IMG/VR virus record: IMGVR_UViG_2541047885_000002
Span: 1 to 26,915 of that record
Length of the DNA: 26,915 nucleotides
Source: a virus
Lineage: Duplodnaviria > Heunggongvirae > Uroviricota > Caudoviricetes
Reading direction: 5' to 3' (one strand)
A program made the position numbers and the translations under genes. The notes under the pieces were generated by a model. It was not told where the DNA came from. It made no database searches and worked only from the letters and a program-made list of their open reading frames with translations. Positions 1 to 26,915 of the stretch are shown one piece after another. Position 1 is the stretch's first letter; the number at the start of each line of letters is the position of its first letter.

Positions 1-92
1 CAGAAAAAGCTTATTATGCTTCCATCGGAAACGATGATCTGGCAGCCTGAGTTCACAGATAAAACACTCTCCAGGAAACCCGGGGCGGTTCA
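1..92 (+). mobile_element. Right-hand terminus of an IS3-family insertion sequence (last transposase codons plus terminal inverted repeat); the element body lies upstream of the window
   Basis: Frame 3 of nt 3-50 translates to [15 protein letters not shown]-stop, continuing the transposase C-terminus read on the minus strand at the other end of the window ([45 protein letters not shown]). Positions 1-92 are the exact reverse complement of 26699-26790. The terminus ends in CA, as in IS3-family ends. I recall this C-terminus as IS3 InsF-like but cannot confirm the exact IS name. Confidence 0.75.
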
Positions 93-1053
93 GTACATCG
101 GCACGGCATCCTACTTCGACCCTGAAGAACTATACAGCGCGCGAGAGTTTTACCATGACACTATCAACGCTTTCTACGGCAAGCAGCAGTATCTGTTTAA
201 TCCACCGTGGGAATCTCTGGCAGATAAATTCCAGTTCCGTGAGGCAGAGTTGACGCTGGTCAATGGTGTGAACGGTCACGGAAAAACGGAGGTTGTCGGG
301 CATATGGCACTTGAGGCAATGCGTCAGGGTGTGAAGACATGCATCGCGTCACTTGAGCTGAAGCCTGGTATTCTCCTTAAGCGCCTTACCCGTCAGGCGA
401 CGTGCTGCAAGATGCCGCCAGTGCTGGAAATTGACTCTGCATTTAAATTTTATGACGAAAGACTTTGGGTGTTTGGCCTGACCGGAACGGCGAAAGCCGA
501 CAGGCTGATCGAAATATTCGACTACGCTCGCCGCCGATACGGGATCCAGTTATTCATCATCGACAGCCTGATGAAATGTGGCATAGGCGACGATGACTAT
601 AACGGGCAGAAGGCTTTTGTTGACTCGATTTGCGACTTCAAAAACAAAACAAACTCCCACGTCATTCTCGTTACTCACTCGCGAAAAGGAGACAGCGAAG
701 AAAAACCAACCGGGAAAATGGACGTAAAAGGCTCTGGAGCGATAACAGACCTGACAGACAACCTTTTCATCATCTGGCGTAACAAGGCTCGCGATAGAGC
801 GTTACAGAGAGTTCAGAGTGGTGAAAAGATGTCAGAGAAGGACGAACAGCTACTGGCATCTCCGGCATCTGTTTTGATGCTTGAAAAACAACGTAACGGC
901 GAAGGTTGGGAAGGTGGTGTCCCGTTGTTCCTTGACGAGCAATCGCACCAGTTCCTGCAACTTGAATCAGGATCGCCATATAGCTACATCGCCAATATGC
1001 CGAAATCGGAATATGACGAGGCGTGGAGACAGGAAAACGTGACGGAGTATTAA
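16..1053 (+). pseudogene. 3' portion of a DnaB-family replicative helicase gene (P22 gene 12 position), 5'-truncated by the IS insertion; the first 25 codons of the ORF derive from the IS end
   Basis: The ORF is open to the window start. From nt 93 on the protein shows a Walker A-like NGVNGHGKTE, a Walker B-like LFIIDSLMKCG and the RecA-fold layout of DnaB-type helicase C-terminal domains. It sits immediately upstream of the nin region. The identity break at nt 92/93 marks the IS junction. Confidence 0.7.
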
Positions 1054-14557: not shown

Positions 14558-15817
14558 ATGTCTAACCAGTTAACAAAAGACCTCGAAATCCTCTTTGAGA
14601 GCGTCATTGATAGTTTTGAGGCGTCCAATGTCGTTTCCCGCGAGTGCAGCAAGTTCCGACCGGGCGACATTGAAATGCAGCGCGCTGGCGACGTTGTTTA
14701 TCGCCCTCAGGGCTACCACCTGAAAACCGTGAGCGGACTTGATCTGACTTCGGCCACTGCAAACTCACTCGTTCAGCGTCAGGTGCCTGCTCGCTTCCGC
14801 GAGCCAGAGAACGTCATCTACGAACTGGACGCAAAAGAAATGCGCGATCCGTGGCACAAAGAGCAGGCTGGCAAGGCGGCGGGTCGCCAGTTGGCGGCGT
14901 GGGTTGATAACATGATCGTCGATGAGGTGGTCGCTCGCTCCACCAACGTGGTCACCATTAAATCGGCGTCCACCGGTAGCACTCTCGGCGAAGAACTCTG
15001 GAACGCATCGGCTGACGTTGATGCAATGATGCTGTCCATTGGTGTGCCTCAGGGTGGTCAGCGCAAGGCGTTCTACAACCCGTTCAACTACAAAGACCTG
15101 GCTAAGGAGCTTGGCTCTCGCGCATATGCGGTCGGTGCAACTCTGACAGCCTATGAGAAAGCTCAGATTCCACCTGTGGCATCCTTCGACAGTTTCCGCG
15201 TTGATTATGCTGGCGCAATGAAGGCTGGTTCAGCTACCGCTGTAACTCTCGGCGGCGCAGTAAAACACAAAGTTACCGCGATGGATTCCAACGGCGCGCC
15301 TACCGATAACCGCCAGGGTGACATCACCGTATCCACTGCTGGCGTACTGGCTGTCGGCGATGCATTCACTATCGCAGGCGTTAACAGTGTCCACATGATC
15401 AAGAAGGTGGATACAGGTAAGCCGCAGGTATTCCGCGTCCTGGCAGTAAATGGCACTACCGTTACCATCAGCCCGAAAATTCTGCCACCAGACAACGCGG
15501 ATAAGGCGTCTATTCCTTACCAGAACGTTACCGCCAATCCGGTGGCAAACGCGGCGATCACCATCCTCAACAAGAAGGCTGCGGCTTCCAACATCTTCTT
15601 CGCTGAGGGTTCTGTTGAGCTGATGTATGGCAAGTTGGCATTCCCTACCGGCCAGGGTCCGCAGGTTATGACCGCAACGACCGAGCAGGGTGCGACCATC
15701 ATCATGGCTTACCAATTCGACGCTAAATCTGGCAAAACGTGGACTCGCTTCACCACGCTGGCTGGCGCAAGCGTACTGGTCCCGGAATTCACCGGCCTGG
15801 TACTGGCTAACCAGTAA
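14558..15817 (+). CDS. Major capsid (coat) protein
   Basis: 419 aa directly after the scaffold gene and followed by a strong terminator; assignment by synteny and size. Confidence 0.8.
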   Translation: MSNQLTKDLEILFESVIDSFEASNVVSRECSKFRPGDIEMQRAGDVVYRPQGYHLKTVSGLDLTSATANSLVQRQVPARFREPENVIYELDAKEMRDPWHKEQAGKAAGRQLAAWVDNMIVDEVVARSTNVVTIKSASTGSTLGEELWNASADVDAMMLSIGVPQGGQRKAFYNPFNYKDLAKELGSRAYAVGATLTAYEKAQIPPVASFDSFRVDYAGAMKAGSATAVTLGGAVKHKVTAMDSNGAPTDNRQGDITVSTAGVLAVGDAFTIAGVNSVHMIKKVDTGKPQVFRVLAVNGTTVTISPKILPPDNADKASIPYQNVTANPVANAAITILNKKAAASNIFFAEGSVELMYGKLAFPTGQGPQVMTATTEQGATIIMAYQFDAKSGKTWTRFTTLAGASVLVPEFTGLVLANQ

Positions 15818-23324: not shown

Positions 23325-23747
23325 CTAACCATCGGATAGGCGCTCTTTTGCCTCTTCGATTAAATCAGCACAAATAAAAGGTAGCTCTGATGAAACAACT
23401 TCCCAGCCAGATTTTTTAACAACTTCATTTAGCCACTCTTCTCTATCGCGAGTTCCTCTCCTTTTTTCCAAGAGGAAAATTTGCGAGTAAATTTGAATGG
23501 CTTTTTCGTTTAGATAAAACGCATATTGTCTGTTTAAAACAACATCTGCAAGTATATTAACGCCTTCTTGAGTTTTTGCCGCTACATCTGGCTCTACCCC
23601 CATACGAATAGATAGGTCGCATAACTCAACGAATGCACGCTCTTCAGCGTCGTGTTTCATTTTGTAAAAATGTGAAGCTAATTTTTGTGTTTCGGCAAGT
23701 TCCGCCCTTAATTTTTTTATCTTGCTTCTCGTTAATATGCCAAACAC
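23325..23747 (-). CDS. Hypothetical protein, visibly AT-rich gene (accessory)
   Basis: GTG start 5 nt after a strong SD AAGGAGG, giving 140 aa; the track's ATG at 23822 has no SD and is disfavoured. N-terminus charged and probably helical. No family recognised. Confidence 0.55.
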   Translation of the reverse strand: MFGILTRSKIKKLRAELAETQKLASHFYKMKHDAEERAFVELCDLSIRMGVEPDVAAKTQEGVNILADVVLNRQYAFYLNEKAIQIYSQIFLLEKRRGTRDREEWLNEVVKKSGWEVVSSELPFICADLIEEAKERLSDG

Positions 23748-23812
23748 ACCAACCTCCTTAGTTTTGAGCAGGATACCAGATGATAATGTGTAGTTGGAGT
23801 AGCGCGGTTGTA

Positions 23813-23902
23813 ATGCAAGCATTTTGTTTTGGTTTTATGCTTGCTTGTATGTGTGTACAGTGTATATAATGCAAGCATACATCACAACAAAGGTGCTTGC
23901 AT
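23813..23902. promoter_or_regulatory. Divergent promoter region with four copies of a near-palindromic 10-bp motif ATGCWWGCAT, plus a sigma70 promoter for the rightward gene
   Basis: Motif copies at 23813-23822, 23837-23846, 23869-23878 and 23893-23902. Promoter TTGCTT (23841-23846), 18-bp spacer, TATAAT (23865-23870). Motif copies overlap the -35, the -10 and the RBS/start region. Confidence 0.65.
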
Positions 23903-23903
23903 T

Positions 23904-24872
23904 ATGACTGAAAAGAAAAGTGGCGAAGGGAAAGCTAAGGGCGGGATCGCTCGCGCAAAGTCGCTGACTAAAGAGCAGCGTTCTGAAATAGCAAAGAAAG
24001 CAGCTGCTGCAAGATGGAAAAGTAAGATTCTCAGGGCAACTCATCGTGGTAACTTTTTAGATGATTTTGGCATTGATGCTGAATGTTATGTACTGGATGA
24101 CGAGTCGAAAACTGTCGTTGTTACGAAAACTGGATTATCTCAGTTGCTAGGGATTGGTGAACATGCCAGGGATTTAGATCAACTGCTTGGCGCTCAGTAT
24201 ATGAGCAAATACCGAGATCTAGAATTGCAGCGAAAAATGGAAAATCCCTATAAATTTCAACTTACTTCGAAGTCTAAAACCGTTCATCAAGCGTTAGGTT
24301 ATGACATTACAGCAATTGTTGATATTGGTAGGGCACTAATAGAAGCCAAAGATAATGACGATCTACCACAATCACGGTTAAAGGCAGCCGCCGCAGCACA
24401 GAGACTTATTAATGCCTCCGCTAAGGCGGGAATTAAGGGGGTTGCGTATGCGCTTGCTGGTTATCGTCCAGAAGTTCAGGCTGTCATTGACGAGTTCAAA
24501 GCGTTTGTTCGTGAAGAGGCTCGTCAATATGAAAAGGAATTTCCAGATGAGCTATACGAGGAGTGGTATCGACTGTACGGCCTGAATAGGCCAGAGAAAG
24601 GACGGCCTATTCGTTTTGGGCAGCTAACCAACATGCAGATATACACCCCGCTAGCAAAGAGTAAAGGTAAAATCCTTGAACAGATTCGAGCCAGCCGAGA
24701 CGAGAACGGAAAACAATCTGATAAGTTGCATCTGTTCCTTTCTGAAATTGGTGTCAAGGCTTTGCGTCAGCATATCGGTAAGCTTCTTGGTGTCGCAGCG
24801 ATGAGTGAGACAAGAGAAGAATACGAAAAAGGAATAGAAAAGGTTTTCGGAAGAATGAAACCAGAAATCTAA
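23904..24872 (+). CDS. Hypothetical protein, possibly P63C-domain family
   Basis: 322 aa from ATG 23904. N-terminal basic motif KAKGGIARAKSLTKEQRSEIAKKAAAARW followed by ILRATHRGNFLDDFGIDAECYVLDD, which I recall as typical of P63C-domain phage proteins (memory only). Followed by a terminator. Confidence 0.5.
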   Translation: MTEKKSGEGKAKGGIARAKSLTKEQRSEIAKKAAAARWKSKILRATHRGNFLDDFGIDAECYVLDDESKTVVVTKTGLSQLLGIGEHARDLDQLLGAQYMSKYRDLELQRKMENPYKFQLTSKSKTVHQALGYDITAIVDIGRALIEAKDNDDLPQSRLKAAAAAQRLINASAKAGIKGVAYALAGYRPEVQAVIDEFKAFVREEARQYEKEFPDELYEEWYRLYGLNRPEKGRPIRFGQLTNMQIYTPLAKSKGKILEQIRASRDENGKQSDKLHLFLSEIGVKALRQHIGKLLGVAAMSETREEYEKGIEKVFGRMKPEI

Positions 24873-24927: not shown

Positions 24928-25464
24928 TCAAACAACCCACCAGTTTGCCTGATTGGATACCAGCCTTGCAGTTTTTATGGAATTAATTATGCCATGCTCA
25001 AGAGCCTTGTTAGCATCCAAAATGGTCGAGTCTGCTATCAGGGATGCCCACCTAATATGGGTTCCGATGTCGATATTGAACGTCTCAACGAAGCGATCAA
25101 GATCGTTATCGAGGCATTTCCCGTACTCTCTCAATCTGGCATGGTCGGCGGCTGGGGTGGCAAAGCCCCATAATAGAGGATGTAACAGGAATCTTGATAA
25201 TGGGTTTGCGAAACGTTCTGAGCCAGCCAGGAAAACGATATTAGCTATGGATTCAACATTGCTTATGTTGTGAGTTCTAACGGTAACAGGGAGTGACTTA
25301 AGAAAGTTATACGCAGTAAAGCCAGCGGCAGTTTCCCCTCCCTGACTTGATATATGGATATTTAATTCAGTTGCGCCTTGAGATAATGCGGTGAGACAGT
25401 GGTTCTGAAGTTGCCCAACAGTGGCAGTGTTAACGGGGCATAAGAAATGAATTGTGTGCAGCAT
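24928..25464 (-). CDS. ClpP-family (S14-like) serine peptidase homologue, translationally coupled to the mnt-like gene
   Basis: 178 aa aligning by eye to E. coli ClpP: SQGGETAAG vs SPGGVITAG, catalytic-Ser region ESIANIVFLAG vs ASMGAFLLTAG, His in RFLLHPL vs RVMIHQPL, and an Asp in the IADSTILD region. Its ATG overlaps the mnt stop (TAATG). Confidence 0.65.
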   Translation of the reverse strand: MLHTIHFLCPVNTATVGQLQNHCLTALSQGATELNIHISSQGGETAAGFTAYNFLKSLPVTVRTHNISNVESIANIVFLAGSERFANPLSRFLLHPLLWGFATPAADHARLREYGKCLDNDLDRFVETFNIDIGTHIRWASLIADSTILDANKALEHGIINSIKTARLVSNQANWWVV

Positions 25465-25732: not shown

Positions 25733-25744
25733 TTTGATATCAAA
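25733..25744. promoter_or_regulatory. Perfect 12-bp palindrome TTTGATATCAAA in the mnt-arc intergenic region (candidate operator)
   Basis: Lies 21 bp upstream of the mnt start and about 80 bp upstream of the arc-like start, where the P22 immI operators lie; a TTGACT -35-like hexamer is at 25762-25767. Confidence 0.5.
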
Positions 25745-25826
25745 GTGTATGCAAAAAAATTTTGACTAGATATACTCACTTTGCTATCTTTTGTATTCTA
25801 AAAGAGTTGTTTGTGTGGAGGGTAAC

Positions 25827-25979
25827 ATGGAGAAAGAAATAAGTAAGATTTTGGTAAGGATGCCGCAGTCGTTAAAGGATGCTATCGGTAGCAGGGCAAA
25901 GGAAGAGTGCAGGTCGTTTAACTCAGAGGTTATCAAGCGCCTGATAGACAGCCTGAAGAGAGAGGGGATAACGGTATGA
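25827..25979 (+). CDS. arc: Arc-like ribbon-helix-helix repressor
   Basis: 50 aa [50 protein letters not shown], the P22 Arc pattern and size; SD GGAGGG 5 nt upstream. The track's longer ORF from 25791 is rejected. Confidence 0.75.
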   Translation: MEKEISKILVRMPQSLKDAIGSRAKEECRSFNSEVIKRLIDSLKREGITV

Positions 25980-26179
25980 GTAAAGAATGTTGTTTCTGCG
26001 GCATTAGCGAATCAGACGCTGATCAAACATACATTTACTCTAAAGAAACAGGTCGGATGCTGTGTAGTGACTGCGTGTTGGACATCATAAGATACAAGCA
26101 TCTTGGATGTTCTGCCAGCATTAGCAATATAGGTGAAGTATACGAAGGGAAAGATATAACTGATAGAGCAGAAAGTTGA
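25976..26179 (+). CDS. Small Cys-rich (zinc-ribbon-like) protein
   Basis: 67 aa with CCFCG ... CSDC; ATGA overlap with the arc-like stop; between arc and the antirepressor gene. Confidence 0.5.
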
Positions 26180-26241
26180 AGCCCCAACTGCTGGAACAGT
26201 CAGGGCTTCGGTATCAACAAATCGGCTTAGGAAATATTGAC

Positions 26242-26698
26242 ATGAAAAGTATAGCAAAGGCACAAAACGATTTCACCATCTTCAAATTTGGCGACAGTGA
26301 AATTCGCGTCATTAACAAGTGCGGCGAGCCGTGGTTTGTAGCTAAAGATGTTTGTGATGCTTTAGCTTTGACTAACTCACGCAAGGCGCTTACTGCACTT
26401 GATGACGATGAAAAGGGAGTAACTTTAAGTTACACCCTTGGTGGTGAGCAGAATCTAAGCATTGTGAGCGAATCAGGTATGTATACATTGGTTCTGCGCT
26501 GCCGCGATGCAGTCAATAAAGGTTCAGTCCCGCACAAATTCCGCAAGTGGGTAACAGCAGAAGTTCTGCCTTCAATTCGCAAACATGGCGAGTATGTAAA
26601 AGGAAAGAAAACCACTGTTGAGGAAAGAACACCGCTACGCGATGCAGTAAACATGCTGGTAGGAAAGAAAGGACTTCGCTATGACGATGCATACAATA
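26242..26698 (+). pseudogene. ant: Bro-N domain antirepressor (ant position), 3'-truncated by the IS insertion
   Basis: From ATG 26242: [60 protein letters not shown]...[14 protein letters not shown]...[17 protein letters not shown] is a typical Bro-N domain. The ORF runs into IS sequence at 26699. Confidence 0.8.
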
Positions 26699-26915
26699 TG
26701 AACCGCCCCGGGTTTCCTGGAGAGTGTTTTATCTGTGAACTCAGGCTGCCAGATCATCGTTTCCGATGGAAGCATAATAAGCTTTTTCTGCTTCTGCCGG
26801 AGGAGTATGGCCCAGCCTTTCCAGCAATCGTCGATTGTTATACCAGTCCACCCACGTGAGTGTGGCCAGTTCCACTTCTGCACGGTTTTTCCAGCTCTTA
26901 CGGTGTATTACCTCC
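26699..26915 (-). mobile_element. Right-hand end of a second copy of the same IS3-family element, inverted relative to the copy at the window start; the transposase 3' end is read on the minus strand
   Basis: 26699-26790 is the exact reverse complement of 1-92. The minus strand of 26741-26915 encodes ...[45 protein letters not shown]-stop, an IS3-family OrfB C-terminus. The element continues beyond the window. Confidence 0.8.

Follow-up and report, generated by a model that had tools for sequence, protein, structure and literature searches.

Insertion of IS629 splits the antirepressor gene ant of a P22-like Escherichia coli prophage and probably inactivates its product

Organization of the control module

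The window, i.e., the entire stretch of 26,915 nucleotides that was analysed, carries close to its right end a regulatory module composed of mnt, arc, sar and the 5' part of ant, the coordinates of which are compiled in Table 1. Both mnt and arc encode full-length Arc-domain proteins of 82 and 50 aa, respectively, which by their Arc domain are assigned to the ribbon-helix-helix repressors and are divergently oriented as is the case in P22. The preliminary description had considered the switch upstream of ant to be intact and this view was substantiated, as both repressor genes are of full length and a Pant-like site with inverted repeats is present between them; sar, which had not been listed before, was found to be complete as well. 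The sar RNA was identified with a score of 69 bits (gathering score 43; E 1.3e-12), covers the entire model (positions 1-68 of 68), aligns with the sar region of P22 and ends one base ahead of the ant ATG. With mnt, arc and sar being located upstream of the tailspike gene, the position of the module corresponds to that of immI, and the module is collinear with that of O157 lambdoid prophages, to which it is 87% identical. The window did not yield any tRNA gene.

The ant reading frame starts with the ATG at position 26242, which is directly preceded by AGGAAA and aligns with the P22 ant start codon, while the Psar-like site inside the 5' end of ant is offset from the ATG by 6 nt, exactly as is Psar in P22 (P22 coordinates: Psar 15097-15125, ant ATG 15091). 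In the list of open reading frames, ant begins at an upstream TTG (position 26176), which yields a protein of 227 aa. This start, which is the one annotated in phage Kapi1, was rejected, as it resides inside the sar RNA and the ATG at 26242 matches the P22 ant start. Considering the sar RNA, the offset of the Psar-like site and the alignment with P22, position 26242 is taken to be the true ant start. As to Kapi1 Ant, annotated as a 314-aa protein starting from the TTG, the position of sar implies that its start was placed too far upstream.

Located between arc and sar, a Cys-rich ORF of 67 aa overlaps the arc stop codon and matches phrog_7150, a family of unknown function (E 3.4e-50). Its CxxC...CxxC pattern might suggest a resemblance to the ClpX zinc-binding domain; the reading as a ClpX-type zinc finger was found to be unsupported, as Pfam returned no match even at E values up to 10, and a PADLOC match was likewise not obtained. 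Next to mnt, a gene for a ClpP-like serine protease of 178 aa was identified (24928-25464, minus strand; PF00574, E 4e-12; no PADLOC match), which is unusual cargo for an immI region. Its start codon shares one base with the mnt stop codon (TAATG) and joint expression of the gene with Mnt in the lysogen is hence probable. Additional cargo locates to the position of P22 sieA, namely an ORF of 165 aa (23325-23822, minus strand), for which no Pfam, PHROG or PADLOC match was obtained, and a P63C-domain protein of 322 aa (23904-24872, plus strand), which belongs to phrog_2384, a family of unknown function. Neither for the neighbouring cargo genes nor for the ant fusion ORF described below did PADLOC give a match.

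Table 1. Coordinates of the features at the ant locus and at the opposite end of the window
Feature	Position	Strand	Evidence
IRR-side end of the other IS629 copy, inverted orientation, interrupting the primase-helicase gene	1..92	+	inverted repeat, scaffold sequence
mnt-like repressor gene, 82 aa	25464..25712	-	Pfam Arc/RHH E 9.6e-11; P22-like divergent arrangement
Inverted repeats flanking the Pant-like site	25736-25747 and 25777-25788		repeat match only
Pant-like promoter TTGACT-17-TATCTT (sigma-70-like), mnt-arc intergenic	25762..25790	+	consensus match only
arc-like repressor gene, 50 aa	25827..25979	+	Pfam Arc PF03869 E 5.5e-12
67-aa Cys-rich ORF (CCFCG...CSDC), between arc and sar/ant	25976..26179	+	ORF list; phrog_7150
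sar antisense RNA, complementary to the ant ribosome-binding region	26174..26240	-	Rfam RF00262
5' ant fragment	26242..26698	+	translation, Pfam Bro-N, Kapi1/O157 Ant identity
Psar-like promoter site GTGAAA-17-TATACT with TG, inside the ant 5' end, leftward	26248..26276	-	consensus match only
Left copy of the 3-bp target duplication ATA	26696..26698		source scaffold, in-silico excision
IRR-side end of IS629, transposase on the minus strand	26699..26915	-	217/217 nt identity, inverted repeat, N run L005 10675-11874
IS-derived tail of the fusion ORF	26699..26859	+	ORF list, translation, comparison with intact proteins
3' end of the IS629 transposase gene orfB	26741..26915	-	ORF list, 'IS629 ORF2' annotation

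The 5' part of ant and its uninterrupted homologues

The native ant sequence in the window comprises codons 1-152 and the first base of codon 153, from where the reading frame continues into 52 IS-derived codons (...TSPPT), which are antisense to the transposase gene and terminate with a TGA at 26857-26859. As deduced from translation, the fusion ORF encodes 205 aa from the ATG at 26242, whereby the Met of codon 153 is retained by coincidence. Within this product, the Bro-N domain (PF02498) was identified by Pfam to be complete (residues 20-110, E 4.7e-20), with 72.4 bits against a cut-off of 25.6 and coverage of profile positions 1-96 of 96. Bro-N is the sole domain of the 205-aa product, and the P22_AR_C domain expected for a P22-type Ant is missing from it.

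Comparison with intact ant genes, as had been proposed earlier, revealed that the Bro-N protein is not of full length before position 26699. The closest ant homologues (98-99% nucleotide identity) encode proteins of 292 aa which combine Bro-N (residues 20-110) with P22_AR_C (residues 192-264) and are annotated as 'antirepressor Ant' or 'P22AR C-terminal domain-containing protein'; the same gene is present in the viable P22-like phage Kapi1 (Escherichia phage vB_EcoP_Kapi1). As the uninterrupted gene does encode P22_AR_C, the ant gene of the window is, by its domain composition, to be classified as a disrupted member of the P22-type Ant family. Residues 122-292 of the intact Ant are 84% identical to residues 130-300 of P22 Ant, whereas the N-terminal domains of the two proteins are unrelated, being Bro-N in the former and P22_AR_N in the latter. 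Retained in the window are residues 1-153, i.e., Bro-N and 43 further residues, which extend ~31 residues into the module common to P22 Ant, and 152 of these 153 residues are identical to both Kapi1 Ant and the Ant of the O157 prophage. Lost are 139 residues (48%), among them the whole P22_AR_C domain, and this loss amounts to 139 of the 171 residues common to P22 Ant. A family of short phage proteins consisting of Bro-N only (phrog_25722, profile length 150) was found to match Ant residues 10-153, and a sequence search of the PDB with the intact Ant yielded no relatives of solved structure.

IS629 in the ant gene

At position 26699 the sequence switches to TGAACCGCCCCGGGTTTCCTGGAGAG..., and it is exactly there that an element of the IS3 family, namely IS629, starts with TGAACCGCCCCGGG.... 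The preliminary description, which had the Bro-N antirepressor ORF running into IS sequence at 26699, was thereby confirmed to the base: the interval 26699-26915 is identical to IS629 in 217 of 217 nt and corresponds to sequence annotated as 'IS629 ORF2' in Shigella flexneri pCP301. The same interval forms a perfect inverted match of 92 nt (100%) with window positions 1-92, which represent the other IS629 end in inverted orientation and belong to the first copy if that in ant is counted as the second, as in the preliminary description. Judging from these alignments, a perfect match of 217 nt along with a perfect inverted repeat of 92 nt cannot be a product of chance. In a megablast search with positions 26100-26915 as query against 5426 complete E. 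coli genomes, the ant matches were 98.3-98.5% identical and all stopped at query position 601/602. The ant homology hence ends at 26700/26701, the last 2-3 bases coinciding with the IS end by chance.

For both copies both ends were observed, with the terminal inverted repeats beginning TGAACCGCCCCGGG, and both copies are flanked by target-site duplications of the length known for IS629 (3-4 bp), these being ATA in ant and GTAC in the primase-helicase gene. The sequenced parts cover the 3' end of orfB and, in the left copy, the 5' end of orfA (HTH_Tnp_1), while the middle ~999 nt of each copy correspond to an N gap. At ant, the known pieces of 217 and 93 nt leave 999-1000 nt, which fits one 1310-bp copy with a gap of 1200 N; at the primase-helicase gene, the known pieces of 219 and 92 nt with a gap of 1000 N equally fit one 1310-bp copy. 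With an assembly gap in place of the central ~1 kb of either copy, a single 1310-bp element per site is the probable reading, in agreement with the gap sizes. In E. coli AST20, the portal gene of a related P22-like prophage is likewise split by an IS629-like element (L003 15793-17101; 99% identity over the end that both have in common), which adds a further case of the IS629 family hitting prophages of this kind.

The source scaffold and the remainder of ant

Exact-sequence look-up of the 205-aa fusion protein matched one contig only, i.e., scaffold KE701649.1 (1.07 Mb) of assembly GCA_000460275.1, and the window is identical to a stretch of this scaffold. Precisely, it equals one contig between runs of 1000 N (L015 7337-8336) and 1200 N (L005 10675-11874), and since both N runs fall inside the IS629 copies, the window begins and ends in IS sequence. 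Both of its ends are repeat-induced assembly gaps and no biological boundaries. This accounts for the earlier remark that the tailspike gene expected downstream of ant is not in the window, as the latter stops at a scaffold gap inside the IS.

Past the right gap, 93 nt of the IRL end of IS629 (...GGGGCGGTTCA) finish at L005 11967 and are followed by ATA (L005 11968-11970) and subsequently by TGGTTCATCAGCGG..., which is the exact continuation of ant. The target ATA is present twice, at window positions 26696-26698 and at L005 11968-11970. The 3' ant fragment comprises 139 codons, encodes P22_AR_C (PF10548; L005 11970-12392, E 7.1e-29) and lies ~1.3 kb downstream of the 5' piece. It is free of any stop codon or frameshift, and from its undamaged state it follows that the insertion is recent. 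In-silico removal of the IS and of one ATA yields an intact ORF of 879 nt encoding 292 aa, the product of which is identical to Kapi1 Ant in 286 of 293 and to the O157 prophage Ant in 282 of 292 positions. In the best-matching genomes, uninterrupted genes align with the restored one without a break over all of its 879 nt, at identities of up to 98.7%, and matches spanning 80% or more of it are present in 409 of the 5426 complete E. coli genomes. Within the 3' fragment (L005 12190-12260), 6 amino-acid differences from Kapi1/O157 Ant cluster within 14 residues (SGRCHDCGYEFSRIIDMA versus SGRCYDYGHEFSYVIGMA), which looks like a small mosaic patch rather than decay following the insertion.

Directly past ant, a tailspike gene was located (L005 12493-15438), which encodes a protein of 981 aa combining a P22 head-binding domain, endosialidase domains and an S74 peptidase domain. 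By its domains, this tailspike is assigned to the K1-capsule endosialidase type as found in CUS-3-like phages. Following the tailspike gene, the prophage ends near ybhB-bioA-bioBFC (L005 16161-20618). The suggestion to look beyond the IS was thus answered within KE701649.1, as both the rest of ant and the tailspike gene lie directly past the element. When the ant/IS629 junction was looked for as an exact 30-nt string in a collection of species-representative genomes, no match was obtained, the strain evidently not being a representative, and among the 5426 complete E. coli genomes the junction was found at 0 places with at least 80% coverage.

The left junction was located in the scaffold through ORF 1665-1985. 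Here, the other IS629 copy splits a primase-helicase gene of the 626-aa Toprim/AAA_25 type, whereby the N-terminal 308 aa precede the IS and the C-terminal part is found at window positions 93-1053. Outside the window, the split locus extends over L015 6194-7336, and a 4-bp target sequence of its own, GTAC, is duplicated on either side of the copy. ORF 16-1053 (345 aa), an artefactual fusion that begins inside the IS, had no match in an exact-protein look-up, as the gene caller had used another start. Since separate matching duplications are found at both copies, two independent simple insertions have taken place. With its primase-helicase gene being split, the prophage is probably defective for replication.

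Interpretation and alternative explanations

Taken together, it is very probable that ant, a gene of 292 codons in a P22-like prophage (Lederbergvirus, CUS-3-like) of the E. coli strain of assembly GCA_000460275.1, received one IS629 by transposition into codon 153 and that Ant is likely null. The gene is split, its product is C-terminally replaced and its regulators are intact; the event in ant is a simple insertion with a 3-bp duplication and zero deletion. The element entered codon 153 with ATA being duplicated, whereby the 5' piece became joined to 52 codons from the antisense strand of the transposase gene. The immI switch may still fire, and its output would then be a protein devoid of 139 of the 171 residues shared with P22 Ant. 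The preliminary description had assumed Ant to be either non-functional or altered at its C-terminus, of which the C-terminal replacement was demonstrated and the loss of function remains inferential: judged from the loss of the domain, Ant is most likely null for repressor inactivation.

In lysogens, Ant is repressed by Mnt. In P22, furthermore, Ant was reported to be dispensable for induction as well as for lytic or lysogenic growth (PMC3121763). For both reasons the insertion is expected to come at little cost to the lysogen. Late transcription was reported to read through the ant region into the tailspike gene (PMC2629481), and a polar effect of the additional 1.3 kb on the expression of the tailspike gene is thus conceivable.

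A persisting activity of the truncated Ant was considered, where Bro-N, the linker and the new tail together would retain antirepressor activity or would have acquired a new role, such as DNA binding or a dominant-negative effect. In line with this, Bro-N is complete, the ORF is open over 205 aa with its native start, ribosome-binding site and regulators, and the ~150-aa proteins of phrog_25722 span just this N-terminal part. The N-terminal domains of ant are, moreover, swapped (Bro-N here, P22_AR_N in P22, ORF6N in L008), which points to modular proteins, and no published mapping of the repressor-contacting half of Ant was found in the literature. However, what the protein has in common with P22 Ant, the one studied by experiment, is confined to the C-terminal stretch of 171 residues, of which 139 are lost, the 52-aa tail is accidental antisense IS sequence, and with the split allele being found on a single contig and in 0 of 5426 complete E. 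coli genomes there is no sign of its retention beyond the strain. A residual or new function of the truncated protein is hence regarded as unlikely. An even more far-reaching idea, reckoned to be very unlikely, takes the two IS629 hits not as random damage but as the result of selection for a 'grounded' K1-specific P22-like prophage, in which the cargo expressed in the lysogen, namely the ClpP-like and P63C genes beside mnt, was kept and the Bro-N remnant, with Mnt, Arc and sar still controlling it, has a new mode of action, e.g., as a decoy or as a dominant-negative factor against the antirepressors of superinfecting phages.

The remaining alternatives concern the structure of the locus rather than its product. 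As the window ends inside the IS, the window taken alone is compatible with an IS-mediated deletion or rearrangement by which the rest of ant and the tailspike gene were lost or moved, a possibility that the preliminary description had left open, and two inverted IS629 copies could indeed recombine; yet in the scaffold the far IS end is succeeded by the second ATA, by ant resuming exactly where it had been broken off and by the tailspike gene, and the left copy has its own matching GTAC, so that, with matching duplications at either copy, neither an inversion nor a deletion can have taken place between the two. Such a rearrangement is accordingly deemed highly improbable. The same low probability is attributed to an assembly artefact, i.e., a mis-join at a repeat that created the ant-IS junction or the scaffold link. 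It is true that both ends of the window are repeat-induced contig ends beside N gaps and that IS629 is a multicopy element of E. coli, the query with the IS end being matched 3 times per genome in the median, but the ant-IS junction resides 217 nt inside the contig and away from its edge, and the gap sizes fit one IS copy. Besides, both junctions were assembled independently and jointly give a precise 3-bp duplication and a restored gene in frame, which a random mis-join would not do. Finally, inverted IS copies with identical inner ends bracket the segment and formally resemble Tn5 or Tn10, for which reason both copies and the 26.6 kb between them might be taken for a composite transposon that arrived together. 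This is vanishingly improbable, as either copy has a target duplication to itself (ATA/ATA and GTAC/GTAC) and the interrupted prophage genes carry on in the outer flanks, that is, the primase N-terminus on the left and the ant C-terminus on the right; given these own duplications and continuous flanks, the segment is in its native place.

The insertion of a single IS629 into ant thus being the preferred reading, all of the components involved, i.e., IS629, an Ant built of Bro-N and P22_AR_C, immI with sar and a P22-like prophage, were already known, and the allele is an ordinary strain-specific knockout. For annotation this means that the locus is to be described as an IS629-disrupted ant pseudogene in two pieces and not as a 205- or 227-aa 'Bro-N protein' next to a 140-aa 'P22AR C-terminal domain protein', and that the prophage is to be scored as probably defective. 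Next to that, the split allele is a possible natural reagent for determining which half of the mosaic Ant bears the antirepressor activity.

Comparison with known systems

With regard to P22 immI (mnt - Pmnt/Pant - arc - sar - ant), gene order and orientations are as in the window. Mnt and Arc are both Arc-domain proteins, sar is of full length, the offset of the Psar-like site is equal and the C-terminal 171 residues of Ant are 84% identical; likewise, the module sits past the ejection-protein genes and ahead of the tailspike gene. Differences from P22 are the N-terminus of Ant, which is Bro-N instead of P22_AR_N, the 67-aa ORF between arc and sar, which is absent from P22, the ClpP-like gene following mnt and the interruption of ant by IS629. 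Ant of Kapi1 and that of the O157:H7 lambdoid prophage represent the same gene in the same arc-sar-ant arrangement, yet these copies are uninterrupted whereas that of the window is split. Furthermore, the O157 module resides within a siphovirus tail gene cluster, while that of the window belongs to a P22-like late operon.

The inserted element is the one that is known from E. coli and Shigella prophages, e.g., those of O157:H7. IS629 was reported to generate target duplications of 3-4 bp and to strongly prefer prophage DNA, and the present insertions, with duplications of 3 and 4 bp inside a prophage, agree with both characteristics (PMC3271280). Compared to other insertions of IS629 into prophages, the ant site stands apart, being seen in 0 of 5426 complete E. 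coli genomes. The locus itself is known for the loss of ant: the 'ant moron' was described as more fluid than any other part of the P22-like late operon, and for HK620 and Scho1 degraded ant genes were documented (PMC2629481). In these two phages functional ant was lost at the same locus, that is, in the late-operon region of highest gene flux (PMC2629481). The ant genes of HK620 and Scho1 are, however, old decayed remnants, whereas in the window both halves of ant are intact, the event being recent and in principle reversible.
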